Assembly (NCBI GenBank): GCA_963663475.2
Contig: CAXXJV010000001.1
Coordinates: 2,752,001-2,816,000 of the forward strand
Length of the DNA: 64,000 nucleotides
Reading direction: 5' to 3'
Origin: Candidatus Cloacimonadales bacterium
GTDB lineage: Bacteria > Cloacimonadota > Cloacimonadia > Cloacimonadales > JAFGVF01
The translations under genes were made by a program, and so were the position numbers. The notes under the pieces were generated by a model. The model did not search any database, was not told the origin of the DNA, and worked only from the letters and a program-made list of their open reading frames with translations. Numbering within the stretch: position 1 is the first letter of the stretch; the number at the start of each line of letters is the position of its first letter. Below, one piece after another: positions 40,291 to 61,395 of this stretch.

Positions 40291-41490
40291 ATGAGTAATA
40301 TTTCAAAAAGGTTAAAATCAACTTATCTAAATGAATTATTTAATGAAGATCGATTAGCTTTATATTCACATATACAAGCTAACAAAGATAATAAAATCAT
40401 GAAGCACTATTTAGATAGTGCTAACTTAAGTGATTATTACCCACAAAATTACTTATTCGACAATGAAAATGATCAAGCATTACTAGATACTCTTAAGTAT
40501 GAATTTAACAATAATGTCCCATTTCCACCACCATTTCATTCAAAATTCACATTTATTGATTTATTTGCTGGAATAGGAGGATTTAGGATTGCAATGCAAA
40601 ATCTCGGTGGAAAAAGTGTTTTCAGCAGTGAATGGAATATATCATCAAAAAAAACATATTTTGCTAATTATGGAGAAATCCCTTTTGGTGACATCACAAA
40701 GAAACGAACAAAAAGTTTAATTCCTAAGACTTTTGATATTCTTTGTGGTGGTTTCCCCTGCCAAGCTTTTTCAATAGCTGGTAAAAGAAAAGGTTTTGAA
40801 GACTCTAGAGGAACATTATTTTTTGATGTTGAACAAATCATTGCAAAGCATCGCCCCAAAGCCTTTTTATTGGAAAATGTTAAAAATTTAATTTCCCATG
40901 ATAAAGGCAATACTTTTACGACAATCAAAAATATTATTTCTAATAAACTTGGTTACATTCTATTCTATAAAGTTTTAAATAGTATGGAGTATGCCAATAT
41001 TCCACAAAATAGAGAACGTATCTTTTTAGTAGGATTTGACCCAAAACAAGTTTCAAATTTTGAAGATTTTAGATTTCCTACCAAACTACCATTAACAAAG
41101 AAAATATCAGATATGATTTCCCCCGAAAGACAAGCTGATATTTATTATTATGATGAAGATCATAGGTATTATAAAGAGTTGGATAAAACCATGAATGATC
41201 CTGATACTATTTATCAATGGCGCCGAGTATATGTGAGAGCTAACAAAAGTAATGTTTGCCCAACTTTAACCGCAAACATGGGAACTGGCGGTCATAATGT
41301 TCCACTTATAAGAGATAATTTCGGGATTAGAAAGTTAACACCTAGAGAGTGTTTAAACTTTCAAGGATTCCCTGACAATTTTAATCTACCCAATATCGCT
41401 AATAGCAAATTATATCTTCAGGCAGGAAATTCTGTGACAATGCCATTAATCAAACGTATTGGAGAACAGATAATAAAGGTGATATTATGA
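40291..41490 (+). CDS. DNA (cytosine-5)-methyltransferase
   Basis: FIDLFAGIGG, GGFPCQAFS, ENVKNL, QNRER, TRD QWRR.YVR.NKS..CPTLTANMG.GGHNVP, QAGNSV. Confidence 0.96.
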   Translation: MSNISKRLKSTYLNELFNEDRLALYSHIQANKDNKIMKHYLDSANLSDYYPQNYLFDNENDQALLDTLKYEFNNNVPFPPPFHSKFTFIDLFAGIGGFRIAMQNLGGKSVFSSEWNISSKKTYFANYGEIPFGDITKKRTKSLIPKTFDILCGGFPCQAFSIAGKRKGFEDSRGTLFFDVEQIIAKHRPKAFLLENVKNLISHDKGNTFTTIKNIISNKLGYILFYKVLNSMEYANIPQNRERIFLVGFDPKQVSNFEDFRFPTKLPLTKKISDMISPERQADIYYYDEDHRYYKELDKTMNDPDTIYQWRRVYVRANKSNVCPTLTANMGTGGHNVPLIRDNFGIRKLTPRECLNFQGFPDNFNLPNIANSKLYLQAGNSVTMPLIKRIGEQIIKVIL

Positions 41491-42617
41491 TTTTTGAACC
41501 TACCTCAGATGATTACAATAAATATATTAGTTTTTTGGAGATTATGTCAAAACTTTCAAGACTTTTTAGTGAGAGTGATATTCCTTTCATAAATTATAGG
41601 TTTGCCGAGAATTTATTTTGCAGGTGTTTTAATGCTGAAAACTTATCCCGATCAGATACTGCCTTTGATGCTAAAATTAACACACTTGGAATTGGTATAA
41701 AGACCTTTACAATTCCCAATAAATCAAGTTATGAAAAAATAGCAGAATTCAACAAACTATCAAGTCATCTAAAACTTCTCAAACCTCATGAATTAGCTCA
41801 TTCCTTATCAGTATTCAGAAATGAAAGAATATCTTTGGCAAAAAGAATATATGGGATTTCTGAATCAATTTATCACATAGTTGCAAGACAAAAATCTAAA
41901 ATCATTCTTTTTGAAACAGATTACTCACAAATAGATTTGAATAATGTTAGTGATATTAATTCAACCGATAAATCTTTATTTTTTCATGATAATATAAATT
42001 GTTACAAGTACTCTTATTCAAAAAGCACTTTATATAGAAAGTTCATTTTACCAGATAATACAATATCTATTGATATAAACATTCTTAAAGATCCATTTGA
42101 ACTTTTATCTGAACTGAGTAATATTATTAAACAGAGAGATTTAATACCAGCAACTGAAGCATCAAGTTTCGTTATATTACCCTTATATGGCAGAGGCAGA
42201 AAGGTATATGAAAAAAGTGGATTGAACCAATGGAATGCTAAAGGAAGGATTAGAAATATTGGTGAGTTATATATTCCTATACCAAGTATAATACATAAAT
42301 ACTTTCCAGATTTCTTTCCAAGCAAAAATGAAACATTCGATCTTAAAATACCTACTGGAGAAATTTTTAGTGCAAAAATATGCCAAGATAATGGAAAAGC
42401 ATTGATGACAAATCCCAATAAGCAACTCTCAGATTGGTTATTAAGAAATATTTTACAATTACGCGAAAAAGAATTAGCAACAATTGAAAAACTTGATCTT
42501 TTAGGTTTCGATAGCGTAATTATAAACAAAATTGATCATAATAAATTTACAATTGACATTATGAAAACTGGTAGTTATGAAAAATTCATTGCTTCTCAGG
42601 TTGATAAATCCCTTTAA
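41487..42617 (+). CDS. Type II restriction endonuclease (NgoFVII-like)
   Basis: ATGA overlap with the MTase; SRSD.AFDAK..GIGIKTF, EKIAEFN, KSGLNQWNAKGR.R...E.YIPIP, Q.NGKALMTNPN. Confidence 0.75.
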   Translation: MIFEPTSDDYNKYISFLEIMSKLSRLFSESDIPFINYRFAENLFCRCFNAENLSRSDTAFDAKINTLGIGIKTFTIPNKSSYEKIAEFNKLSSHLKLLKPHELAHSLSVFRNERISLAKRIYGISESIYHIVARQKSKIILFETDYSQIDLNNVSDINSTDKSLFFHDNINCYKYSYSKSTLYRKFILPDNTISIDINILKDPFELLSELSNIIKQRDLIPATEASSFVILPLYGRGRKVYEKSGLNQWNAKGRIRNIGELYIPIPSIIHKYFPDFFPSKNETFDLKIPTGEIFSAKICQDNGKALMTNPNKQLSDWLLRNILQLREKELATIEKLDLLGFDSVIINKIDHNKFTIDIMKTGSYEKFIASQVDKSL

Positions 42618-43509
42618 AATATACTAAAACAGCATATAAAGCGTGACCAAATCTTTTCCGTCTAATATTCTCCCAAACAACTTTAAGTAACTTACCAGTA
42701 GAAAACTTCCATGTTAATCTGCAATCAATACAGGCGGGATTAGAGCAGAAAAAGAATTTTGGATTCTGCTTACCGGCAGCTACTTCCCAATCGAAAGTTT
42801 TCTTCATATCAGTCACTATAATTTCCCCATTACCTACTTTGCCCTGATAAAGAATACAAGCTTGCTTTTCATATTGAGGAATTAGTCTGTTAAAACCTTC
42901 TTCACAACCTCCAGCCCAATTAATTAGGAAAAGCTTAACTTGATTATCTTGTAAATAATGCACTCCATACTTGAGTCTTTTCTGTTGCAACCCCAGCTCC
43001 CCAATAGCAAGATGACAGGTACCCAGTCCCTTAGTTTTACCAGGAAAGCCTATTCGAACCTTTTTACCACCCATTTCAGTCATTCTTCTCAGAACATCAT
43101 AAGCGTAGTCATCTGGACTATGGTTATTGGCTAATTTATCGGCATATTTACCTAGAATAGCGAATTTTTGAATAGGGTGATTACTTCTTCTTACTTGTGG
43201 ATAAGCTAGCATTGCATTAGCTATAGCTCCAGCATAGGAAGGTGTTTGGGCATGTGTTAAATAGATATTTTTCTTGAGGTAGCGGTATGGTTTCACACTT
43301 ACAAATGAATCAGTGATAAGCGTACCTTCATCTCCTACTACATGGAGAAAGGCATCAATAACAGTTCTAGCTCCCCCCTGTACCCAACCAATGGATTTGA
43401 GGGATATTTTTAAATTTAAAATATCACCTTTCTGGATACCTGCTTTTTTTATATCAGCAATCAACATTTCTTTGCTTATCTCAGTCTGCTTATCCATAAT
43501 CCTAGCCAT
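42586..43509 (-). CDS. AAC(3)/YokD-family N-acetyltransferase
   Basis: GIQKGD.L....SL..IGWV.GG...VIDA....VG.EGTL, RRSNHP. Confidence 0.8.
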   Translation of the reverse strand: MARIMDKQTEISKEMLIADIKKAGIQKGDILNLKISLKSIGWVQGGARTVIDAFLHVVGDEGTLITDSFVSVKPYRYLKKNIYLTHAQTPSYAGAIANAMLAYPQVRRSNHPIQKFAILGKYADKLANNHSPDDYAYDVLRRMTEMGGKKVRIGFPGKTKGLGTCHLAIGELGLQQKRLKYGVHYLQDNQVKLFLINWAGGCEEGFNRLIPQYEKQACILYQGKVGNGEIIVTDMKKTFDWEVAAGKQNPKFFFCSNPACIDCRLTWKFSTGKLLKVVWENIRRKRFGHALYAVLVYFKGIYQPEKQ

Positions 43510-43546
43510 TATATTTTAAATAAATTCTAGTTTTCACTTTTAAAAC

Positions 43547-44008
43547 TTAAATATTTCTTTTAGGAACTAGAACATTTCTACGGAAAGTAAGAACTAGATC
43601 ATTGTTTTGATTATAGGCTTTAGTTTCAACATAGACAATCCCTCTATCTCTTTTAGATTTAGATTCTCTAACAGATAATACTTCTGTCTCGGCATAAAGG
43701 GTATCTCCTACAAAAACAGGACCATTATGCATAATATTCTCATAATTAAGATTAGCAATAGCCTTACCTGAAATATCAGGAACAGTCATGCCCACAACCA
43801 GAGAAAAGACTAGGGTTCCGACAACTAGGATTTTACCATGTTGCTGGCCATTAGCATAATCTTGATTAAGATGAACTGGATGGTGGTTCATAGTAAGCAG
43901 AGAAAATAAGTTATTATCTGATTCGAAGATTGTCTTGGATAGGGCATGTTTAATTTTACAAGCAACTTCAAAATCTTCAAAGTAATTACCAAAAGTTGAT
44001 TCAATCAT
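43547..44008 (-). CDS. MaoC-family (hotdog) dehydratase
   Basis: G.YFEDF, DN..F..LTMN.HP.H, PVFVGDTLYAETEV, RGIV. Confidence 0.9.
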   Translation of the reverse strand: MIESTFGNYFEDFEVACKIKHALSKTIFESDNNLFSLLTMNHHPVHLNQDYANGQQHGKILVVGTLVFSLVVGMTVPDISGKAIANLNYENIMHNGPVFVGDTLYAETEVLSVRESKSKRDRGIVYVETKAYNQNNDLVLTFRRNVLVPKRNI

Positions 44009-44184
44009 ATTTACCTCATTTTTCTTTTTTTTACAAGTTATAATAAAGCTAAAAATTATTCAAGTAAAAATTTGATTATTTAGCTATTCATCCTAAAGCC
44101 AGAATATTGAGTCTTTGCAAAACATTAATATTTTGGTTCAGGTTGGAAGGAAATCCTGTGCAGCTACCTGTAGCATGATTTATT

Positions 44185-44241
44185 CTTCCTTTACAGTCTT
44201 TCGATGAAAGTCCGTGTTTCATCGAAAGACTGTAAAGGAAG
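44185..44241. repeat. Long perfect palindrome, copy 3 of 3
   Basis: CTTCCTTTACAGTCTTTCGATGAAA-gtccgtg-TTTCATCGAAAGACTGTAAAGGAAG; 25-bp arms. Confidence 0.95.
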
Positions 44242-44359
44242 GATCAAGCATGATTAGGGGATGGATAAGAAAAAAATTAGGAGGATGTTAGCTTGAGAGA
44301 TTATCTGGAATAAATTTTGGAGACCAGACTTCCTCAGCCGTAGGCAAGGGACTTCGGGT

Positions 44360-44409
44360 GAAGAGTGTCGGAAGTAGCTACTCCGTGAGCAACTCCCGTC
44401 ACTCTTCAT
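44360..44409. repeat. GC-rich imperfect hairpin (REP-like or structured RNA)
   Basis: TGAAGAGTG-TCGGAAGT-AGCTACTCCGTGAGCA-ACTCCCGT-CACTCTTCA. Confidence 0.55.
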
Positions 44410-44446
44410 ATAGAGCCTAAATTTTTATATTACTCCTAATAATATA

Positions 44447-44474
44447 AAAGGGAGCTTACTAGTAAGCTCCCTTT
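44447..44474 (-). terminator. Terminator of the four-gene membrane operon
   Basis: Perfect palindrome AAAGGGAGCTTACTAGTAAGCTCCCTTT, 23 nt past the stop codon. Confidence 0.8.
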
Positions 44475-44497
44475 ATCTATAGTAAATCTATATTATT

Positions 44498-45094
44498 CTA
44501 TGCAAGCCAACCTTTAAAGGTATCAGCTAAGAATTGCAATCTACCGATGAGAAGTGAGATACGGGCCATAACAGTATAACCGAATGAAGCACCGAAACCA
44601 ATCATCATATACCAGATTCCAATTCGAGAGAATTTTCCATAAGCACCAGTATGGGCTTTGGAGAAGAAGAAGTAGAACAATACAGTAATGGTTCCTAAGA
44701 AGATCAAGAAGATATTGAAATTCTCAATAGGAATCATAGCTTGTCTAACTTGCACAAGCACCATAGAGTTCATACTCATAGTAACACCAGCACCGACCAT
44801 ACCCATTGAAATAGCGATAGGGTATCTAGTTAACCAGCCGTAATTTCTGGAGAATCTGAACCAATATAATACACCAAAAAGAACAGGTATAATAAATATA
44901 TATTTATGTTCTACAAAGATTCTTTGTAAGACAAATGGTTCAAAAGCATTTTTATATACAAGTGGTAGTGCATATCCTAAGGAAACACCTACAAGTAAAT
45001 ATTCAGCAAATCTGTATGCAGGATTATCTTTATACAGAAAGGAAAATATTGATAAGGTCAAAAGAACTGCAACTATTTCGCCTAATAATGTCAT
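44498..45094 (-). CDS. Conserved hypothetical membrane protein (operon gene 4)
   Basis: About 6 TM; SFLYKDNPAYRFAE..VG, MIGFGASFGYTVMARISLLIGR. Confidence 0.85.
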   Translation of the reverse strand: MTLLGEIVAVLLTLSIFSFLYKDNPAYRFAEYLLVGVSLGYALPLVYKNAFEPFVLQRIFVEHKYIFIIPVLFGVLYWFRFSRNYGWLTRYPIAISMGMVGAGVTMSMNSMVLVQVRQAMIPIENFNIFLIFLGTITVLFYFFFSKAHTGAYGKFSRIGIWYMMIGFGASFGYTVMARISLLIGRLQFLADTFKGWLA

Positions 45095-45102
45095 GTTTCC
45101 TC

Positions 45103-46131
45103 CTATAAGTTTTTATTTTGATTTCTTTTTTCCAAGAAGTAACCAATGTTACCAAGGATAATGAAAACAATAATTAGAATGTGTGCAACAGATTGAGCAT
45201 TCATACCAAGACGAGCCATTTTGAATGAAGTAGGCACTCTATCAGTTGTGATATCAAGGTTTGCTAACATTTCTTCAGTTGGGTTATCTAATTGGCCCTT
45301 AGAGAAGGTAATATTGTTCATAGCAAACATATCAACAAGTTTTTCGTATTCAGCAGCACCTTTAAGACCAGCTGTCATACCAACACATTGTCCTGATTGA
45401 ATATAAGGATATTGGTCAGCAGCCATAACAGCAGTTAAACCAACACCAACATTAACACCAAAACGAGGTCTAGCATAAATCATCCAAGAAAGGCCTTGGT
45501 CATTACCTGAAGTTTCATAAACTAGGTTCATTTGGGTGTAGTTTCTAATTGCAGTATCTCTGTACATTGGAAGGTTTTCAATTCTATTACCATCTGAATC
45601 AGTTTCCACCGCAGCAGCAATATCATCACCCATACCAAGGAGGATAGGAAGATAAAGAGCAGCAGGTTTATAACCAATATTGATATAATCCTTACCTCTT
45701 TCAATGACCCTACCAGTCTTTTCAATTTCTTCAGTAACTACTGAGAGAGCTTCTTCAATAAGAGGCACAGCAGTTGCCAAGATAGTGAAGGTATAGAAAG
45801 GTACTCTTCTATAAATACAGTGTCTCATAACAGCAACTTCCATTGGGAAAAGTTCTGGCATGGTTGCAGCATCATGATAAACATCGATAAAGATAGCTCT
45901 ATCTAATTTAAAAGCATCAACTTCTTCATCAGAGATGATACCATCATTATTAAGGTCATCAGCCCTCACGTAAGGAGAGTAAGAGTCAATGATTTGATAT
46001 AGACTCTCCACAGGAGAAGTTGTATAAGTAACAGATTTAAACGGGAAAGCAAGTGGTATAATGATAGCAACAGCTATAAATACAAACACATATCTTCTGT
46101 CTAAGCCTTGTAAGTTTTTAATAAAATTCAT
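45103..46131 (-). CDS. Conserved hypothetical membrane protein, alpha/beta domain between two TM anchors (operon gene 3)
   Basis: DRR.VF N-terminal TM; G.DYINIGYKP, TAVMA...YPY.QSGQ..G...GLKGAAEYE, M.AQS.AH C-terminal TM; EF-hand-like DLNNDGIISDEE. Confidence 0.85.
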   Translation of the reverse strand: MNFIKNLQGLDRRYVFVFIAVAIIIPLAFPFKSVTYTTSPVESLYQIIDSYSPYVRADDLNNDGIISDEEVDAFKLDRAIFIDVYHDAATMPELFPMEVAVMRHCIYRRVPFYTFTILATAVPLIEEALSVVTEEIEKTGRVIERGKDYINIGYKPAALYLPILLGMGDDIAAAVETDSDGNRIENLPMYRDTAIRNYTQMNLVYETSGNDQGLSWMIYARPRFGVNVGVGLTAVMAADQYPYIQSGQCVGMTAGLKGAAEYEKLVDMFAMNNITFSKGQLDNPTEEMLANLDITTDRVPTSFKMARLGMNAQSVAHILIIVFIILGNIGYFLEKRNQNKNL

Positions 46132-46142
46132 ATTTCCTCCTA

Positions 46143-46781
46143 TTAATCTCCACCACCGAGGTAGGTTCTTTCGATACCTAACAAGATTTTAAGTGATGTT
46201 GCCACAGAGCCAAGACCAACACCTAGTAAAATACCTCTTTTAGAAGCAAGGTTTGGTACATCCATAATCCATTGAGAAATATCTAAAATATTGATTGGCC
46301 AGCTTTTTGAAATAGTCATACCAAGTGGAACTTGACCTAACATAACAATAATAGCAGCAATCAAAAGCACAGTAGCTTCGATAGATCTAGCACGGAATGA
46401 TTTATAGGCAGCAGTAGCCATGTAGAATGCCAAAAGTGAGAACATAGTAGAACTCATAGGCATCATTAAGTTTCTGAAAATCCATTGAGAAGGAGTTCCT
46501 GATTGGGTTCCCCAGATAAAACCAACTGTTGAAGTAACAACAAGACCACTTAGGGTTATAATTGAGTATCCCCATTTAGGAGCTTTCATTCTAATTTTAT
46601 TATAGTGAACACTTACTAAACTGTAGACCCCAAGAAAAACAGCCAGAGGTGACATAGTTTTAACAAATTCTTGGTAAGCCATATATACATCATCTTGCAT
46701 CCATTTAGCAGGAATAAAAGTCCATCCTACAAAAAGGAAACCAAGCATCATTACTATTGCTATAGGTATATTTTTTTTCAT
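46143..46781 (-). CDS. Conserved hypothetical membrane protein (operon gene 2)
   Basis: About 6 TM; MFSLLAFY..AAY..FRARS.EA, W.M.VPN.A..RGI..G..LG, LG.ER.YLGG. Confidence 0.85.
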   Translation of the reverse strand: MKKNIPIAIVMMLGFLFVGWTFIPAKWMQDDVYMAYQEFVKTMSPLAVFLGVYSLVSVHYNKIRMKAPKWGYSIITLSGLVVTSTVGFIWGTQSGTPSQWIFRNLMMPMSSTMFSLLAFYMATAAYKSFRARSIEATVLLIAAIIVMLGQVPLGMTISKSWPINILDISQWIMDVPNLASKRGILLGVGLGSVATSLKILLGIERTYLGGGD

Positions 46782-46789
46782 TGTAACTC

Positions 46790-49639
46790 CTATTTATCTG
46801 GGAATATATCAAGTAAGAATGTAATTTTCGAAGTGGAAAGAACAGTTCCCACGATAATGAAAAAGAGAACAAGGAACTTAAAGTAGTCTTGTGCTTTCAA
46901 AGTTCCGAGAATCATTGGTTCTTTAGACATATAAGCTGAAGCAGCATAAAGCTCTTCACCAATAAGTGTGTAGTCACAAGTAGTGATAAAGAAAGGAATC
47001 TGGGTAACAGAGTCTGTACCAGCAATCTGGATAGCACCAGTAATGTTACCAGTTTCAGTCATAAGAAGTGATTCAGCGAAATATGAGCCCATGTAGAAGT
47101 TAGTAGCAGTTTTTTCACGAATCATGATTCCGTTAACACCAGCAACATAAGCAAATTGGTCAGTTGTTACGAAGAAAACTGAGTTTTTGTCATAAGTATC
47201 TGGTCTTCCTGCTTCAATATGAGATTCTTTAACAATCTCTTGAGCAATAGGCATTAAGATATAGTCACGTGTAGGAACAAGAATTCTTGTATCGTATTCA
47301 GCAGCCTTCTTAGCAACTTTACCTAGAATAGAAAGTGCAGCAAGGGTAGCAACAACACCAATTGAAGACATACCAGGTACGAAAAGAATAGGTCTTCCCA
47401 TCTCAGTAGCACGACCAATAGCATTATCGATTTCTTGGATACCAGCGATAGGTCTGATATATAATTCTCTACCTTTTTTAGCTAGGTTAACCATTACAGC
47501 AACTAAGATAGCAAAGATAATAGAAGCAATCAAACCAGCCCATTTTTCATGGTCAAATTGGTTTGAAATAGGTGTAAAGTATTTGTAAGTACCGTCTTCA
47601 TTCTTAGGAAGTTCATAAGAAGCAAAGAGGCCTTTATTGTTAGTAGAAAATACTTTATAAGAACGTTGTCTGAGGCTATTATCTCTGTGGTCTTTTACAA
47701 TAGAAATCCATTTTGAAGTAGAGATATTACCATCTAACTTAGCATTTAAATCATTTAAGGATGTAATATAATTTGCTAAGAGAGCTTTATATTGAGCATC
47801 TTCTTCAAGAGTCATTTCTTCATTAACAGCTTCAATTTCAGCTGCAAGAAGTTCTTTAGCCTTTTCAGGGAATCTATCAAGTGTTAAGGATTTTTCTACA
47901 TCAGAATTATACCAAACTTGGATACCTGAATTAACAAGAACTTTACCAGATTCAGAATCAAAAGCAACTACTGGTTCATAAAGAGATCTTTCATAAGATA
48001 TAACATCACTATAGTTATTCATTTTTCCAACAACTTTAGGAGCTATTGTATTATAGATAGGTGAACCACTCTTAGCATAGACTTCATAGTTGAAAGTATT
48101 TAATTTAATTCCGTCTTTTTCAAGTGCTTGCGGAATTAATGCTTTTAAAATAGAATCAAATTTTAGTTCTTGAGTAAATGTATAAGGTTCAGATTCTTTA
48201 TTTTTAGTTCTTACAGTAATATTAGCAATGATGGTTTCATTTGCATAGCCTTCAGGTAATTCAGCTTTAATAATATTGTTTAAGTAGAACTCTTTTTCAG
48301 TAAAGAATGCTTGATCCTGTCCTTTAACTGTAAGTTGAAGATCAAAATCTTTCAATCTTTCAGACTCATTATCAAAGAAGTCATAGTTAACAATAAGTTT
48401 GTTACCTAATTTGTTATCAAATGAAGTTTTAGTAATTTCAACTGTTGGTTTTTCCCAAACTACAACTTGAGTATCACCTTTATCATTTGGTAGATCATAA
48501 ACATTAAAAGTAGGAGTTCTAGGAGTATCTTTTACATCTTGAGTAAAAATGCTTTGATATTTTTCCATTTTGTTATCATTTAAGAAGATAAAGCCACCAG
48601 CATCTGCTTGGATAGCTACTGAGTATCTGTTAAGATTGTTAATATCAAGAGGGAATTTTTGATCTGCATCCATTATATAAGTTTGACCAGCTTCCATATT
48701 AATCTTAATAGATTTTTTTGCATAAACGTTTGTTTGTTGATCAATTGGAATTATAAATGGTTGGCTAGCTTCATAAGGCATTTCTTCACTAGCTTGGAAG
48801 TAGTTTTTAGCTGTTTCATAGTCTTCGTCAAAAATATAGATTGCTTGTTGACTTGCATATGAACCTGCTTTATCTTCCCAATCAAAGTTAAGGCTAATAG
48901 CCTGATTACCATCTACAATTAAGGATGCATAAAGTTCTGTTGCAGGGGCTAATAATGGATCTTGAACAGGACTTCCACTAATTACTTCTGATGGTTTTAA
49001 ATAACGTCTGTTTTCATTAATTGGAACAACGCTATAATAATAAGTTTCACCAGCTTTTATACTAGCTAAAACACTTACATTACCCACAGGATAACCAGCT
49101 AAAGTTTGTTCATTATATTCAACTTTATCGAATCTCTTGTAATAAGAGCTTTTCTCAATTTGAGCTATAAAGTTAAATTTTCCATTAGTTTGTTCTAAGA
49201 CTTTTAAATCTCTTGGGTAACCATTATTAACAGTACCAAAGTAGAAAGTCTCATCGTTAAGTGCTTCTACCTTATCGTCAAGTTTGATTCCACCAGGGGA
49301 AGCTTTATCAACAAAAGGTTTATAACCACTATCAAGGTAAGTAATTTCATCGCCTGCAAATCCTACAACAGGATTTAACACAACGCTGCCTAAATAGAAT
49401 AAAGAATCAGGTGTAGTACCACGATAGACTCTATATTCCAAAATTTTTAGTTCATTTGGTAAAGGCTTCCATTTGAGGGTAAGCCCATTACCTAAATCGC
49501 CAGCTACGTCTTCGATAACAAAGTCTTCAATTTCAGCGTTTTCTGCTGTAATTTTATCAGCAAAAAGGCCAAAAGAAAAACTTAATGCTACCAAGCATAG
49601 TATTACTGACAACCATGACTTGTTACGGTTTTTGTGCAT
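46790..49639 (-). CDS. Large exported Fn3-like protein with C-terminal membrane-anchored DUF6754-like domain (operon gene 1)
   Basis: Signal peptide; repeated D-x-x-[GN]-D-x-G...W starts; YRVYRG and YYYSVV; TM then IRPIAG..EID.AIGRATEMGRP, AESL...ETG, Q.PFF..CDY.LIGEELYAASAY, final TM. Confidence 0.8.
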   Translation of the reverse strand: MHKNRNKSWLSVILCLVALSFSFGLFADKITAENAEIEDFVIEDVAGDLGNGLTLKWKPLPNELKILEYRVYRGTTPDSLFYLGSVVLNPVVGFAGDEITYLDSGYKPFVDKASPGGIKLDDKVEALNDETFYFGTVNNGYPRDLKVLEQTNGKFNFIAQIEKSSYYKRFDKVEYNEQTLAGYPVGNVSVLASIKAGETYYYSVVPINENRRYLKPSEVISGSPVQDPLLAPATELYASLIVDGNQAISLNFDWEDKAGSYASQQAIYIFDEDYETAKNYFQASEEMPYEASQPFIIPIDQQTNVYAKKSIKINMEAGQTYIMDADQKFPLDINNLNRYSVAIQADAGGFIFLNDNKMEKYQSIFTQDVKDTPRTPTFNVYDLPNDKGDTQVVVWEKPTVEITKTSFDNKLGNKLIVNYDFFDNESERLKDFDLQLTVKGQDQAFFTEKEFYLNNIIKAELPEGYANETIIANITVRTKNKESEPYTFTQELKFDSILKALIPQALEKDGIKLNTFNYEVYAKSGSPIYNTIAPKVVGKMNNYSDVISYERSLYEPVVAFDSESGKVLVNSGIQVWYNSDVEKSLTLDRFPEKAKELLAAEIEAVNEEMTLEEDAQYKALLANYITSLNDLNAKLDGNISTSKWISIVKDHRDNSLRQRSYKVFSTNNKGLFASYELPKNEDGTYKYFTPISNQFDHEKWAGLIASIIFAILVAVMVNLAKKGRELYIRPIAGIQEIDNAIGRATEMGRPILFVPGMSSIGVVATLAALSILGKVAKKAAEYDTRILVPTRDYILMPIAQEIVKESHIEAGRPDTYDKNSVFFVTTDQFAYVAGVNGIMIREKTATNFYMGSYFAESLLMTETGNITGAIQIAGTDSVTQIPFFITTCDYTLIGEELYAASAYMSKEPMILGTLKAQDYFKFLVLFFIIVGTVLSTSKITFLLDIFPDK

Positions 49640-49680
49640 AGATTTCTCCTTATCATTATAAATAAGCTTTATATTAACTA

Positions 49681-49710
49681 ATTTAACAGGAAATTAATTT
49701 TCTGTTAAAT
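49681..49710. promoter_or_regulatory. 30-bp near-perfect palindrome upstream of the operon (putative operator)
   Basis: ATTTAACAGGAAATT|AATTTTCTGTTAAAT, one mismatch, about 40 nt before the ATG. Confidence 0.4.
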
Positions 49711-49965
49711 CTTAATTAATAACTTAGATTAAGTAAAAACTAACAATTATAACAAATTGAGTAATAGTCACAATTTGTCAAACACTTTTTTATGTATTTT
49801 GCCATACCCTGGGTTTAATATCCTTCCTAATTTCTTCTTATTTATTAGTTATCAGTAACTAAGACACTTGTTGTGTAATTTTACATAGATATTCTGCTAG
49901 TAACTAATAGAAGGATAAGCTTATTTACCCAGGCTAAAAGTTCAGTCAATCATTAAGCTAAACAG

Positions 49966-50143
49966 TGGAGTAGGCTTTGTGAATAGCTCAATATTCTTCT
50001 GCAAAAGTAAGCTAGATAATTTCCATGAATATATATTATATGCGTCAGAATTCTGCAAGCTATTTTGCTAAAAGAATTTGCACTCTTCTCTAAAGCTCTA
50101 TTGCACCATTGGGTTAAATCCTACTGCACCACTTAGGGATAAT
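49966..50143 (-). mobile_element. MITE-like element copy B (inverted) plus an extra terminal repeat
   Basis: Reverse complement of 49966-50105 aligns with 25127-25271; an extra CTACTGCACCACTTAGGGATAAT lies at 50121-50143. Confidence 0.75.
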
Positions 50144-54148: not shown

Positions 54149-56149
54149 CTAAGGTTGTTGGTATATTAGTTGATTATCTCTGTATTCAGGTAAATCTAAA
54201 TACCAGTCTGGATAGGATTGTCCTGAGGATTCAGCCCAAGCTTGGAACTTATGGTAAGCATGGTTTATCTTTTTAGTTTCATAAGGATAATCCCAGCTTT
54301 CAGCAATGTTAAGAGCCCATGGGTGATTATTTACAGTTTTATAGAATCTGTTTTGATTAATGTTAGAGTTATCATCGTTAAGTCCGAAAAGAGTTAAATC
54401 AGCTAGATTACTTGGCGGATAATCGGAAAGGTGAACTTCATGTTCTCTGACTCTATCAACGAAGATAAAGGGGTTAAAAGGAATAGACCATTGCCAGTTA
54501 TCGGTATCTTGCGGACTAGTAAAAATGATATTCAGGGCAACTTTAACAGGTTGAATGTAGTTTGTGCCTGCTTGTGTATTTATGAAGTCATCATTATTTT
54601 GGGCAATAAAGTCATTAGTATTATTGATAAATCTGATAACAGCTCTTTGTCCATCTTCTAAGACTGGGTTAAAGCTAGCATGGGAAATCACATTAGAATA
54701 TGATAAAGAATCTGTTCCATCAATAATAATATAATCTTGGATCAGAGTAGAGTTAAATGGAAATTCAACTGCAAAACCATTTTGTTTTCTAGCTCCCACA
54801 GCTCTTAGTTCAAATTCAGTAATGAGGTTGGTAACCTGACCTTGAACATTTTTATGGAAAAACATATTGTAATCAATTACCATATCGTTAAAGTCATAAT
54901 CACCTTTCTGAGGCCATAAATCTTCAAAGACTAAAGTAGAATTAGAATAGTTATTAGTATGAAAAGCCTTGTTAGGGTCACTTGGGAAGTCGTCAAAGAT
55001 ATCTGATATTCCATCACCATCTTCATCATCAGGAGTATCAATTGGTTGAACATCGTCAATATCTATAGATTCAATAGGATTAGCGGTTGCATAGAATACA
55101 GCATCGTTATAATCATCATCTCCTATATTAAAGACTAAGTCCTCAAAAGCAAACAAGAGTTTTTGGTATTCATTATCATAAACTAAGATACTTTGCTGAT
55201 TATTATCTGGGTTAAGATTTGTATTAGAGAACCAAGAGTTAGTAACTAGATGAGCTCCACCACTGTACCAACCGTTATCCATCAAGACCCAGCCAATGAT
55301 TGTACCTGGTTGGAAGATACCTAAAGAAATCTTATCTCCAGGAACCAAGCCTCCACCAGAATTTACCATTGAAACATTTGGGAAAATAATCTTAACAAGA
55401 TCAATATCATCTCTACTTTGAGGAGGATTGCCTGCTTGATAGGTATAATAACCCAAAGAGTTCAAATGTCCTGCTCCTTCGTGCACAAAAGTAACCCAGA
55501 CTTCAGCGGCTTCATCAATGACAAGAACATTAAGCTGGTTACCATCAGCAAGATAAGTAGGGTGATATTGAGGGACAGGTCTGCTTTCAGGTAGAGTAGC
55601 ATCTACTTTAGTTAAAAAGGCTGCAGGAATATCATCTCTTTCCATATTAAGAGGAACACCTACTGCATTATATTCGCTTAAATATTCTAAATCTGTTTTT
55701 GGAGGACTAAGGGGTTTTTTATCATTTCTACCCTTATCATTTAGACCAGTTCCAAACTGATAACTTACACTATTATTAGTAATGGGTAATTCTAAAGAAG
55801 ACATATAGCCCATTACATAGATACTTGTTAGGTATGTTGGTAAGGTAGATTTAAAGCTTGCCCTACCTGCTTCATTTGTTGAAGCAGCTTCTAGAAGTTT
55901 TCCACCTAGACTTGGATCTTTATCATAAATTTTAAATGGTATATTAGCAACGCCTTGACCTTGACCATTAAAGACTTGGAGATCAATATTGACTAATTCT
56001 GTAGTAGAATAATTAAAGTCTTCTTGAATTTGTAAGTCTTCGAAGTCAATTTGGCTTGTGTTTGTATCATTAGAATCATCATTACTACAAGCAAAGCTTA
56101 TTAATAAAAGAGCTACTAGAATCAAAGAAGTGAGCATTTTATTTTTCAT
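54149..56149 (-). CDS. LruC-domain lipoprotein (DUF4114/DUF4842-like), paralog 1
   Basis: Lipobox SFAC after the probable ATG at 56149 (ORF track starts 56200); FVHEGAG..N..GYY, AFEDL...DDDYNDAVF, FEDLWP..GDYDFND, NPFI, PWAL. Confidence 0.82.
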   Translation of the reverse strand: MKNKMLTSLILVALLLISFACSNDDSNDTNTSQIDFEDLQIQEDFNYSTTELVNIDLQVFNGQGQGVANIPFKIYDKDPSLGGKLLEAASTNEAGRASFKSTLPTYLTSIYVMGYMSSLELPITNNSVSYQFGTGLNDKGRNDKKPLSPPKTDLEYLSEYNAVGVPLNMERDDIPAAFLTKVDATLPESRPVPQYHPTYLADGNQLNVLVIDEAAEVWVTFVHEGAGHLNSLGYYTYQAGNPPQSRDDIDLVKIIFPNVSMVNSGGGLVPGDKISLGIFQPGTIIGWVLMDNGWYSGGAHLVTNSWFSNTNLNPDNNQQSILVYDNEYQKLLFAFEDLVFNIGDDDYNDAVFYATANPIESIDIDDVQPIDTPDDEDGDGISDIFDDFPSDPNKAFHTNNYSNSTLVFEDLWPQKGDYDFNDMVIDYNMFFHKNVQGQVTNLITEFELRAVGARKQNGFAVEFPFNSTLIQDYIIIDGTDSLSYSNVISHASFNPVLEDGQRAVIRFINNTNDFIAQNNDDFINTQAGTNYIQPVKVALNIIFTSPQDTDNWQWSIPFNPFIFVDRVREHEVHLSDYPPSNLADLTLFGLNDDNSNINQNRFYKTVNNHPWALNIAESWDYPYETKKINHAYHKFQAWAESSGQSYPDWYLDLPEYRDNQLIYQQP

Positions 56150-56243
56150 ACATTCTTCCCCTATGTGCATTATTTGAGAAAATCTAATTATTTTTTGCAT
56201 TATTACAAATATTTTTTAATTAAAAATAAAATAATATAAAAAT

Positions 56244-56266
56244 AGGGGAACCATAATAGTTCCCCT
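56244..56266 (-). terminator. Hairpin between the LruC paralogs
   Basis: AGGGGAAC-cataata-GTTCCCCT; minus strand followed by ATTTTT. Confidence 0.7.
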
Positions 56267-56281
56267 GTCATCTTATCAATT

Positions 56282-58285
56282 TTATTCTTGTTCGTAAATT
56301 CTTTCAGTATTTCTGTAACCAGGCAAGTCTTTGTACCAATCAGGATATAGTGTTCCTGAGGATTCTGCCCAATCTTTGAATAATAGGTAGGCACCAATAA
56401 CATTATTCTTTTCGTAAGGGTAATCCCAGCTTTCAGCTATGTTTAAAGCCCATGGGTGGTTTTCAACAGATTTATAGAATCTATTTTGACTAAGGACTGA
56501 AGAGTCTTCATCAGTACCAAACAAGGCTAAGTCAGCTACAGAAGTTGGAGGGTAATCAGCTAAATGAATTTCATGTTCTCTAACTCTATCAACATAGATG
56601 AAAGGATTAAAAGGTGCATTCCATTGCCAATTAGCAATTTCTTCTGGATTTGTAAGCTTAATGTCTAAGGCAAACTTAATAGTTCCTTGATAGGCATTAT
56701 TCATTTCAGTATTGATAAAGTTATCTCCCTGAGCTTGAATCAAGTCCAAAGTGTTGTCTATATATACGATAGTAGCATTTGCACCAGCTTCAAGTTCTGG
56801 AGTAAAGTTTTCATCAGACAGGTAGGTAGAGTAAGTTAGAGGGTCAGAGCCATCAATTATTGTATATGATTCAATGTTAGCAGAAGAGAATGGGAATTGG
56901 ACAGCAAAGCCATTTCTAAATCTTGCACCAACAGCTCTTAGTTCAAATTCAGTAATTACATTTTTAATCTCATTATCGGCATTCTTATGGTAGAAGATGT
57001 TATAATCAACAACCATATCATTGAAGTCATAATCTCCTTTTTGAGGCCATAAATCTTCAAAAGCTAATGTTGACATACTATAATCATTGGTTTGAAATGC
57101 TCTTTCAGGGTCTAGAGGGAAATCATCAAACATGTTTGGCACGCCATCGCTATCATCATCACTAGGAACACCAATTGGGGTAACTTCAGATGTATCAATA
57201 GAATTACTAGGTTCAGCTGAAACAAAGAAAAGGGCATCATTAAAGTCATCATCTCCATAGTTATACATTAAATCTTCAAAACCAATAACTAGTTTATCGT
57301 ATTCATCATCATAGAAGAGAACGCTTTGTTGATAGCCAGTATAGTTCAATTCTTTATCTGAGTACCATGTATTTGTAACTATATGTGGTGAGCCATTATA
57401 CCAACCGTTGGCCATTAGCACCCATGCTACAACAGTGCCAGGCTCAAATTCACCAATATATACTTTATCACCAGGGACTAATCCACCACCTGATCCAACC
57501 ATTGATACATTTGGGAATACGACTGTAATTTCATCAATATCATCAGCTGTTTGAGGAGGATTATTGGCATCGAAAGTATAAAAACCAAAGACATTTTTGT
57601 GTCCAGCACCTTCGTGAACAAAGGTAATCCAAAGATCAGCTGTTTGATTAATGATAACAGCATTGAATTGATTTGCAGGATATAAGTAATGAGGTTTATT
57701 ATCAGGCACTGATACTCTTTCTGGGAGTGCATTATTAACTTTAGATAAGAAGCCTGCTTCTACTGCTTCAAAACTCATATTAGTTGGGACACCATCTACG
57801 TTATAAGTATCTAAATATGTTAAGGTAGATTTTTCTGGACTAATAATTTCTTTGTTATCAGCTTGGGAATTGAAAGAATTAGAGCCAAACTCATAATTAG
57901 CGAATCCATCACGAATAGCTATTTCACGAGCATCCATGTAACCAACCACAAACAAGGTCTTGAGATAGGAAGGTATTACTATTTTGGAAGAAAAAACACC
58001 CTTAGAATTAGTGAGACCTGAATCTAACAATCTACCACCTTCCTGTGGGTCTTTATCGTATATTTTGAAAGGTATCTTATCAACACCATTACTATTACCA
58101 TTAGATACTTTTAATTCTACATTGACGTTATCAGTGGTTGAAAAATCAAAGTTGTCTTCAATTTGAAGATCAGAAAAGTCTGCTTCAGGAACAATATTAC
58201 TAGCACTTTTAGTTGAGTTCTCACAACCAAAAGTAACAAGCAGCAATATTATAGCGCTTATTAAAACAAAATTTTTGTATTTCAT
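56282..58285 (-). CDS. LruC-domain lipoprotein, paralog 2
   Basis: Lipobox TFGC after the probable ATG at 58285 (ORF track starts 58318); collinear with paralog 1. Confidence 0.82.
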   Translation of the reverse strand: MKYKNFVLISAIILLLVTFGCENSTKSASNIVPEADFSDLQIEDNFDFSTTDNVNVELKVSNGNSNGVDKIPFKIYDKDPQEGGRLLDSGLTNSKGVFSSKIVIPSYLKTLFVVGYMDAREIAIRDGFANYEFGSNSFNSQADNKEIISPEKSTLTYLDTYNVDGVPTNMSFEAVEAGFLSKVNNALPERVSVPDNKPHYLYPANQFNAVIINQTADLWITFVHEGAGHKNVFGFYTFDANNPPQTADDIDEITVVFPNVSMVGSGGGLVPGDKVYIGEFEPGTVVAWVLMANGWYNGSPHIVTNTWYSDKELNYTGYQQSVLFYDDEYDKLVIGFEDLMYNYGDDDFNDALFFVSAEPSNSIDTSEVTPIGVPSDDDSDGVPNMFDDFPLDPERAFQTNDYSMSTLAFEDLWPQKGDYDFNDMVVDYNIFYHKNADNEIKNVITEFELRAVGARFRNGFAVQFPFSSANIESYTIIDGSDPLTYSTYLSDENFTPELEAGANATIVYIDNTLDLIQAQGDNFINTEMNNAYQGTIKFALDIKLTNPEEIANWQWNAPFNPFIYVDRVREHEIHLADYPPTSVADLALFGTDEDSSVLSQNRFYKSVENHPWALNIAESWDYPYEKNNVIGAYLLFKDWAESSGTLYPDWYKDLPGYRNTERIYEQE

Positions 58286-58481
58286 ATCTCTCTCCATCCT
58301 TAGTTTTAATCTGTACACAATATAACGCTATTGTTTATTTTGTCAAATAGTATTTTTATTATGAAAACATCTTCAGCTTTTTGGGACAAGTTTTACTTGT
58401 TATTACTTGATTAAGAGTATGATATTTTTTTGGCACTTTGCAGATTTAACTTTTAAAATATAGTCCTAGAGAAGACCTATT

Positions 58482-58860
58482 AATTTCCTTTCAATCAGTA
58501 ATTGCTTGGGTGGGCTTAATTCACTCACCTTCGCAATTCTTTTTTTTCACTTTCCATTTTATTCTTAATTTTTTCGTTCTTGTCAAGCAAGAAACTATTT
58601 CATCAATATTATTTTCTGAGTAACAGACTTGTTCTGTCCAGCAGATATTTTATAAAAATAGACACCACTTGCTACTTGCTGTTCATTGCTGTCTCTTCCT
58701 TGCCAAAGAACTTTATGCACACCTTGAGACAAATTATCTTGTAATAGTTTTTTTACCAGCTGTCCTTTCAAGTTATAGATATTTACTGAAACTTGACCCT
58801 GAACTGGATTATTAAATTCTATAGTTGTTTCTGGATTGAAGGGGTTGGGGTAATTGGTAG
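58482..58860 (-). repeat. Repeat module (FlgD-Ig coding end + 3' flank), copy 1
   Basis: High DNA identity to 61026-61395, including non-coding AGTAATTGCTTGGGTGGGCTTA. Confidence 0.88.
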
Positions 58861-60991
58861 CTGTAAAATTATTTAAAGCAATTTCGTTATCATGAGAACC
58901 AGTATAACCTTGATATTCATAACATCCCATATCTACTCTATCACCAAATACTCTGGGATTTCCCCATAAATCCAAGTCATTCACTTCATACCAGTCAGGC
59001 ATAAAGTTAAAATCTGCAGTACCAGCATCAATCGCTGGCGAGTAGCCACTCACTTCTTCACCTGATAGCTGATAATAAGAATTTATTGCAGGGTCTCCTC
59101 CTACAAAAAGAGGATCAGTGTCATAGAGATTGTTTTCTCCTAAGTTAAATAGTCCACTGCTAGTTGGAGAAAAAAGGTTTCCCAAGTTATTACTAAATAA
59201 GCAATTATCAATATCAATTGCAACTGGTCCATAATGAAAAGCAGAATTCTGTGAATTGTTAAATAAAATTGAATTATAAACTTTGATTGATTCACTTGCT
59301 ATAAAAACTGTTGTATAATCCATGCCACCAGTATTATTTGAGAAAGTGCAATTATTAACTAAAATTCTATTGCCAGCTGTATAAAAGTTCCTAGAGTTAT
59401 TTCCATCACTATTGTTTGCAATTAAGCAATTATCAATAACTATATTAAGAGAATCGTATAGTGTTAGAAATCTAAAATTAGCACCACCATAACTCTGAAC
59501 AGAACTATGATTATTAATAAATTGGCTATTTTTTACAACTAACAGATTTTTAGCATATACTTGAAATATTCCAACAGTACCAACATCACTATTATGAGTA
59601 TTGGTATTATCCTTTATGATTACATTATCTAAAGTAACATCAATACCTTGGACATATCCAACAGCTTCATAGAGGTCAGAAACACAATTTTGGATTAATA
59701 CATTTTTCATTCTAACAGATGAATAGGCAACACTTCCCAAAAGTAGAGGGCATTCTCGAATATCGTTGTTTAGACAATTATCAATTATAATATTTTCCAA
59801 ATTAAGATTCATAACTGCTGAAGACCTAAGAACACACCCTGTTCTGTTTGGTAATGATATGTTCTTAATCGTAATATTCTCCCCAGTCAATGATGCATTG
59901 ATAACCCCAGTAAAGGGAACAACTTTAATATTCTCGCCATCAATAATAGTCTCTTCAGCTGATACTCCTTGCAAAGTAGTATTACTCTTCACCGTAATTG
60001 GCAGATCTTCATAACCATTAGCACAATTACTATAATAGCCAACAGGAAGATGGACTGTCCTTTGATTATTTGGATTACTCTTGATTATCTGGAATGCTCT
60101 ATAAGTAGAGCGTAAAGCTTGTTCAGGAGTTAAGCCGTTATTATTATCATTACCCTCCATTGACACATATAAATCAGCATCTACTTGCTCATGAATTCCT
60201 TCTTCAATATCAAAAACATAATAGGGGTTATAACCAATATCTAAGTAGCCACCATTTGGATCCCAATAACTGGCATAATAAAAATCATTTTCACTAACAG
60301 TAAATTTCTTTAAATATACATCGCAGTTGCCGCCATTATGATTGTACCAATGGATATCACTTCCTAAGCTGGCATAATTATCATAGATAGAAGACCTGTT
60401 TTCTTGATCGAAAATAATACTCGGTTGCTCATCATAAGAGCTGGCTACTTGTAAGCCTCCACCTGAATCGTATCCTAAATTATTTCGGATAATAGCCCCA
60501 CTAAGATGTAAGCCAACGTTAGGGAAGATTATCACTCCCCCACCTCTATCTGCAGAGTTATACTTGATAATTGAATTAACCAAATTCATATTACCTACAA
60601 ACACATTAACTCCTCCTCCAACAGAATAACCACTTCCTTGCCAGCCTGTTCCTCCAGTTATAGTAAAACCTCTCACTAAGAAATTTGTATTATTACCATT
60701 ACAGACAATTACACTATTTTGATTAAGAGAACCGTTGATAGTTGTTATGGAAATATAAGTAGTATCATTAGTTGTTGCTTCCAGGGAAATTAGACTAAGA
60801 TTATTGGTATTACTTAAATCTATGTTTTCAAAATAAGTACCTGGATATACTAAGACTGTATCACCTGCTTCAGCACTATTAACTGCTGTTTGTATCTCTG
60901 TATAAGGTTTTGTTCCATCTAAAGAGACTTCCAAAAGAGCATGCAGGCTAAAGGAAATCAGCATTAATATGGGTATGAGTATTTTGTGCAT
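58595..60991 (-). CDS. Secreted beta-helix (pectin-lyase-like) protein with C-terminal FlgD-Ig/T9SS-like domain
   Basis: IQ.A...A..GDTVLVYPGTY.EN, GGG repeats, LYVS..GND.N.G, SPAIDAG, NYPNPFNPETTI...ASGVYFYK. Confidence 0.85.
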   Translation of the reverse strand: MHKILIPILMLISFSLHALLEVSLDGTKPYTEIQTAVNSAEAGDTVLVYPGTYFENIDLSNTNNLSLISLEATTNDTTYISITTINGSLNQNSVIVCNGNNTNFLVRGFTITGGTGWQGSGYSVGGGVNVFVGNMNLVNSIIKYNSADRGGGVIIFPNVGLHLSGAIIRNNLGYDSGGGLQVASSYDEQPSIIFDQENRSSIYDNYASLGSDIHWYNHNGGNCDVYLKKFTVSENDFYYASYWDPNGGYLDIGYNPYYVFDIEEGIHEQVDADLYVSMEGNDNNNGLTPEQALRSTYRAFQIIKSNPNNQRTVHLPVGYYSNCANGYEDLPITVKSNTTLQGVSAEETIIDGENIKVVPFTGVINASLTGENITIKNISLPNRTGCVLRSSAVMNLNLENIIIDNCLNNDIRECPLLLGSVAYSSVRMKNVLIQNCVSDLYEAVGYVQGIDVTLDNVIIKDNTNTHNSDVGTVGIFQVYAKNLLVVKNSQFINNHSSVQSYGGANFRFLTLYDSLNIVIDNCLIANNSDGNNSRNFYTAGNRILVNNCTFSNNTGGMDYTTVFIASESIKVYNSILFNNSQNSAFHYGPVAIDIDNCLFSNNLGNLFSPTSSGLFNLGENNLYDTDPLFVGGDPAINSYYQLSGEEVSGYSPAIDAGTADFNFMPDWYEVNDLDLWGNPRVFGDRVDMGCYEYQGYTGSHDNEIALNNFTATNYPNPFNPETTIEFNNPVQGQVSVNIYNLKGQLVKKLLQDNLSQGVHKVLWQGRDSNEQQVASGVYFYKISAGQNKSVTQKIILMK

Positions 60992-61025
60992 TGATCTGTC
61001 CTTTGTGTTGAATTTATTATATAAA

Positions 61026-61395
61026 AATTTCCTTACAATTAGTAATTGCTTGGGTGGGCTTATTTTCCCACCTTCACAACTCTATTTTTCACTTTTCATT
61101 TTTATCTTTTTGCTCATGCAAAGCAAGTAATTACTTCATTAAGATTATCTTATGAGTAACAGACTTCTTCTGTCCAGCAGATATTTTATAAAAATAGACA
61201 CCACTTGCCACTTGCTGTTCATTGCTGTCTCTTCCTTGCCAAACAACTTTATGTACACCTTGGTTTAAGTTATCTTGTAATAAATTCTTAACAAGCTGTC
61301 CTTTTAAGTTATAGATATTTACAGAGACTTGCCCCTGAACCGGATTATTAAATTCTATAGTTGTTTCTGGGTTGAAGGGGTTGGGGTAATTAGTA
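61026..61395 (-). repeat. Repeat module (FlgD-Ig coding end + 3' flank), copy 2
   Basis: High DNA identity to 58482-58860. Confidence 0.88.

Follow-up and report, generated by a model that had tools for sequence, protein, structure and literature searches.

To our knowledge, bacterial ATP-driven solute transporters use ABC, P-type or rotary ATPases. ECF importers and some ABC importers share one energising module. RnfA/E and NqrD/E are inverted six-TM pairs, whose sizes and topology are used as a comparison below, and hydantoinase-type proteins of the actin/Hsp70 fold (ASKHA) activate their substrate with ATP. MutL/GlmL is described, in an excerpt of PMC4682846, as a chaperone in the reactivation of glutamate mutase. 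For the Pfam domain DUF6754 (PF20539) no paper with that term was found. The operon described here, ABCD, contains this domain and, as judged from sequence, is the membrane part of an eight-gene system with F, E and the small proteins G and H. This system is widespread and unstudied.

Organisation of the operon

In the window, that is the whole 64,000-nt stretch of DNA analysed, the operon consists of four ORFs on the minus strand in the order A, B, C, D. The features are as follows:

49746..49773, minus strand: best sigma70-like site upstream of A, 10/12 with extended -10; candidate only
49640..49655, minus strand: ribosome binding site of A (AAGGAG), upstream of the A start
46790-49639, minus strand: gene A, ORF of 949 aa; hydrophobic N-terminal signal, ectodomain, then DUF6754
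46805..47566, minus strand: DUF6754 (PF20539) core of A, residues 692-944
46143-46781, minus strand: gene B, ORF of 212 aa; about six TM segments; no family
45103-46131, minus strand: gene C, ORF of 342 aa; TM, Rossmann-type domain, TM
44498-45094, minus strand: gene D, ORF of 198 aa; about six TM segments; no family
44447..44474, minus strand: intrinsic-terminator-like hairpin of 12 pairs with a T-rich tail, 23 nt past the D stop codon

An earlier note on this DNA had described four co-oriented genes 8-11 nt apart, each with a ribosome binding site. This is correct: the gaps measure 8, 11 and 8 nt and contain the sites of B, C and D (AGGAG or AGGAGG), so that AGGAG(G) precedes all four starts. 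The terminator placed after the operon was also found, at 44474-44447. Its weight lies in its position after D, since the number of terminator-like sites is uninformative (3 observed, 4.2 in shuffles). The 664-nt gap upstream of A is a divergent intergenic region, and the sigma70-like candidate within it is not above chance (40 sites observed, 34.6 expected).

Here ABCD alone form the transcription unit, with no ATPase gene inside. The absence of an ATPase, ABC, TRAP or MFS signature from ABCD was upheld by Pfam and NCBIfam searches and by the lack of Walker A and LSGG motifs in A-D. In the Pfam check of all four proteins DUF6754 was found in A, while B, C and D had no match in Pfam or NCBIfam, ABC permease and ECF S- or T-component families included. 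No membrane subunit matched TRAP, MFS or another named secondary carrier family, and homologues of B and D (92 and 95 sequences) gave scattered weak TM matches only. In these Pfam, NCBIfam and homologue profile searches the set indeed proved uncharacterised and outside any known transporter family, and no structure matching the membrane subunits was found. B and D each have about six TM segments, as had been proposed; the number derives from averaged hydropathy, not from a structure model.

Gene A has a conserved core and a variable ectodomain

DUF6754 matches A with an E-value of 1e-116 and 388.8 bits against a gathering cut-off of 27, over positions 3-255 of the 257 in the model. No other part of the membrane subunits is as well conserved as this core (median identity 54% in 138 cassettes), and its predicted layout is TM, six-stranded Rossmann-type domain, TM. 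The ectodomain of about 665 aa is variable and has at least one Fn3-like unit. Pfam fn3 did not match A of this genome, and a profile built on five homologues that fn3 does match detected one clear unit at about residues 35-134 (iE 1e-5) and a weak one at about 371-454. The term Fn3-like, which had been applied to the ectodomain at large, therefore holds for part of it only. Fn3, propeller and FG-GAP add-ons are seen on homologues of A.

Across homologues the N-terminal extension of A ranges from 38 to 1014 aa. In some it is replaced by beta-propellers, and in three full operons (L102, L103 and L216) A has 258 aa and no ectodomain. Judged by these homologues the ectodomain is an optional accessory and dispensable. 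Substrate capture, the task that the earlier note had given it, is therefore not supported as a core feature of the system.

Fold and orientation of the membrane subunits

AlphaFold models of the A core and of C (pLDDT 90 and 94) have an identical order of elements, TM-Rossmann-TM, and match the same structural templates over corresponding ranges. The two membrane-anchored alpha/beta domains of the earlier note agree with these models. At the profile level neither A/C nor B/D homology was significant (P 0.024 for the best in-register A/C alignment), and the six-stranded Rossmann fold is a common one. In A the K+R counts are 4.5 and 3.2 on the domain side versus 1.2 and 0.7 on the opposite side; in C they are 1.3 and 1.9 versus 3.4 and 4.1. 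Because this charge bias puts the domain of A inside and that of C outside, the A core and C can be seen as an inverted pair, the Rossmann-type domain of A being probably cytoplasmic and that of C periplasmic. B would be oriented N-in/C-in and D N-out. The TM segments of the system hold conserved polar residues. His317 and Asn328, in the last TM of C, are invariant, and so are Asn24, Tyr27, Glu31 and Arg90 of D.

Structure comparison of the model tentatively placed the domain of A closest to Sir2-type nucleotide-binding folds. Profile tests of this domain against Sir2, ETF, PntB-III and TrkA gave P 0.044-0.85, compared with 0.05-0.7 for reversed controls and 0.0007-0.09 for true superfamily pairs, the comparison sets being shallow (4-29 rows).

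The partner genes

F is an ASKHA ATPase gene with the database label GlmL/MutL. Its product is far above the cut-off of Pfam PF13941 (E 1e-118) and below all three NCBIfam GlmL cut-offs (193.6/475, 191.4/600 and 139.8/204). It is about 150 aa longer than GlmL/MutL proteins. Each of the two ASKHA phosphate motifs is intact in 55 of 56 F proteins, and F probably hydrolyses ATP. E is a barrel-sandwich partner with an aromatic hairpin tip and no invariant Lys at the hairpin; its Biotin_lipoyl match is weak and below the cut-off, and no family exceeded the cut-off for E, G or H. In this genome F and E lie 2.4 Mb from ABCD, a fused F-E ORF is present and H stands apart. A fused F-E ORF adjoins A in both of two loci, which were fetched for that reason. 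In the proposed arrangement identity falls outward, from 61% in F and 54% in A through 49% in E, 44% in D and 42% in B to 36% in C.

Distribution and co-occurrence

The 77 loci surveyed were drawn from the best 80 of at least 615 matches. All four genes were present in 70 of them, in the fixed order A-B-C-D and in about 15 named lineages, so the set does recur elsewhere. Archaea, named as carriers in the earlier note, were not among these 77 loci. Its restriction to anaerobes was too narrow: the carriers include Gimesia, Isosphaeraceae and Phycisphaerales records, groups that include aerobes.

ABCD are very probably linked to F and E, as co-occurrence suggests. Among 201 Planctomycetota genomes 56 had DUF6754, 55 E and 55 F; DUF6754 was found together with E in 53 and with F in 54, leaving 3/56 without E and 2/56 without F. 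In the phylum of genome G104 (201 genomes) DUF6754 exceeded the cut-off in 40 and E in 39, all 39 shared, so that 1/40 lacked E. Of 101 Cloacimonadota genomes 94 had DUF6754 and 95 PF13941, and six genomes, all small, carried neither. All these counts were made across related genomes, whose kinship overstates independence. In a selection of 15 genomes with ABCD, E was found in every one; in 11 of these the flank fetched around the operon did not contain it. Eight-gene operons exist in three gene orders, and in three planctomycete loci A adjoins E (F-E-A in two) with D elsewhere. A genome has one F/E pair, and its ABCD cassettes may number as many as three or four; some loci hold two or three divergent cassettes in an array. 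Contrary to the earlier note, the operon is thus not self-contained: F and E co-occur with it almost perfectly, often in the same operon. Nor is it likely to be ATP-independent, since an ASKHA ATPase with intact phosphate motifs and its partner E accompany ABCD.

Codon use

The earlier note pointed to a cluster of C-ending codons (TTC TAC TTC TTC TTC TCC at 44677-44660) as a hint of high expression. The bias is real. C/(C+T) at Phe, Tyr, Asn and Ile codons is 0.45 in D, 0.42 in B, 0.40 in C and 0.34 in A, where the genome as a whole has 0.25 and a set of 31 ribosomal-protein genes 0.35, and codon log-odds place A-D at percentiles 94.7-98.3 of 2045 genes. E and F share this signature (percentiles 99.5 and 95.6), which G and H of this genome, at the 38th and 42nd, do not. 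From such ribosomal-like codon use ABCD are likely to be highly expressed.

Possible function

We tentatively propose that ABCD with F/E import a small organic nutrient across the inner membrane, coupled to ATP. The opposed pairs A/C and B/D would give a core with inverted pseudo-symmetry and about 16 TM helices, as in alternating-access carriers. F with E would dock onto the very conserved cytoplasmic domain of A, and ATP turnover by F would drive or gate the transport cycle. Cargo choice would lie with the more variable outer domain of C and with B and D. The ectodomain of A would be an optional accessory in transport, and paralogous cassettes would share one energising F/E module. Import direction and cargo are the weakest steps, and the peptides or amino acids suggested by the earlier note are candidates only. 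Neighbours of an uptake type speak for import: TonB/ExbBD occur in 7/77 loci, a TonB-dependent receptor in 3 and M28 peptidases in 6/77. Each neighbour set stems from few lineages, and the neighbours disagree on cargo.

The same evidence of F/E coupling would suit an envelope-building or export machine, in which ABCD, powered by F/E, flip or export a lipid, lipoprotein or surface polymer, with the variable outer domains as scaffolds. Lipid-type neighbours, commoner than peptidases (short-chain dehydrogenases in 16/132 loci, AMP-binding enzymes in 13/132), agree with this, as do the near-universal presence in Cloacimonadota, the aromatic hairpin tip of E, which could touch the membrane, and the add-ons of A, of kinds common among envelope proteins. 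However, the system is present in just 56/201 Planctomycetota and 40/201 genomes of the other phylum, arrays of divergent cassettes suit cargo diversification better, and no glycosyltransferase or polymerase travels with the operon across lineages among the loci surveyed; we consider such a machine unlikely. A sensor or nucleotide-gated channel, in which the Rossmann-type domain of A binds an adenine (di)nucleotide in the manner of an RCK/KTN gate, C senses the outside and F/E regulate the pore instead of powering it, is less probable still. Among the loci surveyed no K-channel filter, kinase, cyclase or DNA-binding output accompanies the operon, ribosomal-level codon bias exceeds the need of most sensors, and the profile tests of the domain did no better than reversed controls.

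The uptake system of the earlier note, ion-driven and with an Fn3 ectodomain capturing peptides, would explain why ABCD form a transcription unit without an ATPase here, and inverted topology with polar TM residues fits a secondary carrier. It is nevertheless improbable, since ABCD almost never occur without F/E and complete operons lack the ectodomain. An ion pump that conserves energy from a chemical reaction, in the way of Rnf/Nqr, a transhydrogenase or a decarboxylase, with F activating the substrate by means of ATP, seems equally improbable. B and D match neither Rnf-Nqr nor PntB profiles (for PF02508, the Rnf/Nqr pair, hhalign P was 0.16-0.17, like reversed controls), their top conserved Cys column reaches 7% in B and 37% in D, a covalent-FMN attachment motif occurs in 0/103 C homologues, E has no invariant hairpin Lys, and the four Rnf/Nqr DE-type genes of the genome stand elsewhere. 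Finally, F might be a GlmL-type B12 mutase reactivase whose link to ABCD is incidental. Its PF13941 score and the chaperone role given to MutL/GlmL in the excerpt of PMC4682846 speak for this, and its scores against the NCBIfam GlmL models speak against it. In the one phylum examined, glutamate mutase E was found in 2 and lysine/ornithine aminomutase in 1 of the 201 Planctomycetota genomes; F was present in 0/3 of these, and 0/55 F-positive genomes had either enzyme. This absence of mutases largely refutes the role, which is very improbable.

If the importer reading is true, solute transport would here be energised on a new principle, by a protein of the actin/Hsp70 fold. The system may then represent a novel class among primary active transporters, though we would not yet call this probable. 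In it an ASKHA ATPase and its barrel-sandwich partner would power an inverted, pseudo-symmetric core of four subunits, formed by duplication of a module of Rossmann anchor plus six TM with one copy flipped, and one ATPase module would serve several cargo-specific cassettes in many bacterial phyla. Because it is very conserved, likely highly expressed, near-universal in Cloacimonadota and common elsewhere, the system may be a main feeding route of its carriers (planctomycetes, Cloacimonadota, uncultured sediment and digester phyla). The GlmL/MutL label hides it, and our reading would correct this. Cultured planctomycete groups carry the system, which makes an experimental test possible.

Comparison with known systems

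The C-terminal 253 residues of A are a full-length member of Pfam DUF6754, a domain-of-unknown-function label that covers A only and not B, C, D, E, G or H. The nearest candidate folds for the domain of A are Sir2/DHS-like NAD(P)/FAD-binding Rossmann domains and transhydrogenase domain III. Unlike these it is anchored in the membrane at each end and lacks a zinc module and a conserved His; identity is 8-11%. B and D resemble the inverted six-TM pairs RnfA/E and NqrD/E in size and in their probable opposite orientation, but lack profile similarity, Fe-S cysteines and flavin subunits. With GlmL/MutL and Or-4 (PF13941; NF040745, NF040744, TIGR01319), ASKHA proteins which are accessory to B12 mutases, F shares the Pfam family and the ASKHA phosphate motifs; unlike them it pairs or fuses with E and accompanies a membrane cassette, not mutases. 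ECF and ABC importers differ in their ABC ATPase, where F is ASKHA, without Walker A or LSGG, and no ECF, ABC-permease or binding-protein match was obtained. In its overall plan the system would nevertheless be like those that share an energising module: one soluble ATPase module serving several interchangeable membrane cassettes.

The ABCD cassette and its surroundings

The four ORFs of the ABCD membrane-protein operon were confirmed, with an AGGAG(G) site ahead of each, gaps of 8, 11 and 8 nt between them and a terminator behind the last. Pfam and NCBIfam searches placed DUF6754 at residues 692-944 of A and assigned no family to B, C or D. Of the Fn3-like ectodomain ascribed to A in the earlier note, one clear unit and one weak unit were recovered. 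The codon hint of high expression held genome-wide: by log-odds against 31 ribosomal-protein genes, ranked over 2045 genes, A, B, C and D lay at the 97.6, 97.2, 98.3 and 94.7 percentile, D reaching only the 56th by plain CAI. The source genome (3.3 Mb, 33% GC) carries the cassette once. Residues 58-70 of C (window 45922-45958) form an insertion specific to the source clade, which we take to be of the DxNxDG type, EF-hand-like and possibly calcium-binding.

Two genes downstream of the terminator (window 42586-44008), one aminoglycoside 3-N-acetyltransferase-like and the other for a MaoC-like dehydratase, are not conserved next to other cassettes. Two palindromic repeat families, REP- or MITE-like and scattered through the genome, occupy window 44170-44262 and 44317-44412; 72 matches were listed, with up to 99% identity, and one of the two families has a perfect stem of about 26 bp. 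They had no Rfam match, and what looks like a related copy is at about 49975-50110. The window also holds a C5 cytosine methylase paired with an NgoFVII-like restriction enzyme (40291-42617) and, at 54149-58318 and 58595-63851, an LruC-like DUF4842/DUF4114 tandem pair with two secreted proteins bearing FlgD/Por-type tails; contigs from RNA runs cover the DUF4842 genes.

Spread of the cassette

The closest named homologues belong to Cloacimonadota, where 94 of 101 genomes carry DUF6754, often in 2 or 3 copies; 2139 relatives of DUF6754 were found among 50%-identity representatives. A GTDB genome scan, of whose 615 or more matches the best 80 were kept, gave 77 loci with record titles from Cloacimonadota, WOR-3, Stahlbacteria, Zixiibacteriota, Ignavibacteria, Planctomycetota, Acidobacteriota, Gemmatimonadetes, Armatimonadota, Fermentibacteria, Coatesbacteria, Riflebacteria, Muiribacteriota, Eisenbacteria, Vulcanimicrobiota, 'Deltaproteobacteria' and 'Bacillota'. 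The four genes do recur together: 70 of these 77 best-match loci have the complete set in the order A-B-C-D, and most of the other seven stop at a contig edge or gap. Zixibacteria and Ignavibacteria have divergent cassettes in tandem arrays of 2 to 3 or more. A second C paralogue follows D in the operons of L201, L202 and L205, 4-6 genes lacking a Pfam match separate D from H in one clade (L204, L207-L210), and a B homologue (L057:12554-14332) has an FG-GAP repeat of about 380 aa inserted in a loop.

Association with E and F

Contrary to the earlier note, the cassette is not self-contained: E and F co-occur with ABCD in whole genomes and as neighbours. E (about 375 aa) starts with barrel-sandwich-like repeats, and F (about 610 aa) is a PF13941 protein of the ASKHA fold; together with the small proteins G and H they are the most frequent neighbours. 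In the source genome the genes lie at:

C1:380617-384012, G-F-E
C1:1584483-1587335, fused F-E ORF (L100)
C1:2220995, H

E or F flanked 31 of the 77 best-match loci. All 15 chosen genomes possessed E, one copy being in pieces, and 11 of them had it outside the flank. Among 201 Planctomycetota genomes DUF6754 was found in 56, E in 55 and F in 55; DUF6754 and E coincided in 53 (DUF6754 only 3, E only 2), DUF6754 and F in 54 (2 and 1). In the phylum of G104 (record title Bacillota; 201 genomes) DUF6754 was present in 40 and E in 39, with 39/39 overlapping. The counts cover related genomes and are hence not independent; the same pattern appears in three phyla. Within about 10 kb, E or F was found in 14 of 20 genomes of the G104 phylum and 14 of 20 Planctomycetota, picked for long contigs from 40 and 56 positives. 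The eight-gene operons show three gene orders, and in three planctomycete loci A adjoins E while D is located elsewhere.

Six Cloacimonadota genomes of one genus (G002, G005, G008, G017, G023, G064) had neither DUF6754 nor PF13941; near-complete at 1.5-1.6 Mb, they represent a reduced lineage that has lost the system. One other genome of the phylum had PF13941 and no DUF6754. A second PF13941 match, in a frame of 950-1080 aa, is common in Cloacimonadota.

The genes for E and F, distant from ABCD in the source genome, have the codon signature of high expression as well; G, H and the fused F-E paralogue there lack it. This paralogue (950 aa, average codon use) lacks the last domain of E, and an OvoA (ovothiol synthase) gene lies directly downstream.

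PMC4682846 describes GlmL, the database label of F, as a mutase helper. Such a role was rejected for F, which scores under the GlmL, Or-4 and TIGR01319 cut-offs and is absent from mutase-bearing Planctomycetota genomes: glutamate mutase E, present in 2 genomes of the sample, and Lys/Orn aminomutase, present in 1, were both missing from the 55 F-positive genomes. F keeps both ASKHA phosphate motifs in 55 of 56 cases.

Possible function

An ATP-coupled importer fits the system best. We prefer it because the conserved coupling parts (F, E and the domain of A) would lie in the cytoplasm, the membrane core would be inverted, the outer face would be variable and a single F/E pair would serve several cassettes. 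Gene order, co-occurrence, the motifs, the fusions and the codon bias are observed. The folds of A's core and of C are predicted, and two matched models are evidence for A and C as an inverted pair; which side of the membrane the domains face, how the subunits assemble, that ATP is used and that a cargo is carried, and in which direction, we infer.

TonB/ExbBD genes, in 7 of the 77 best-match loci, and M28 peptidases, in 6 of them, point towards uptake, but short-chain dehydrogenases (16 of 132 loci) and AMP-binding enzymes (13 of 132) are commoner neighbours, each set being confined to few lineages. In WOR-3-like and Fermentibacteria records (L024, L033, L036, L043; L035, L039, L045) the cassette continues into ExbB-ExbD-TonB genes, accompanied in the last three by a TonB-dependent receptor. 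We consider it unlikely that the system exports material or builds the envelope, and a nucleotide-gated channel or sensor is somewhat less probable still. The ATP-independent uptake system of the earlier note, which as a carrier of the four genes without E and F would be ion-driven, is improbable, and a redox or chemical pump equally so.

Comparison with known systems

The system is real and widespread. It is apparently undescribed, a literature search covering few subscription journals and no supplements having found no published description, and is probably a new kind of machine. What is new here are the matched A/C models, the exclusion test of F against the mutases and the codon signature common to the distant F and E genes. 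Membership tests gave no support for placing the system with ABC/ECF, TRAP/MFS, Rnf/Nqr or GlmL; its proposed way of working most resembles that of importers whose membrane parts draw on one common energising module.
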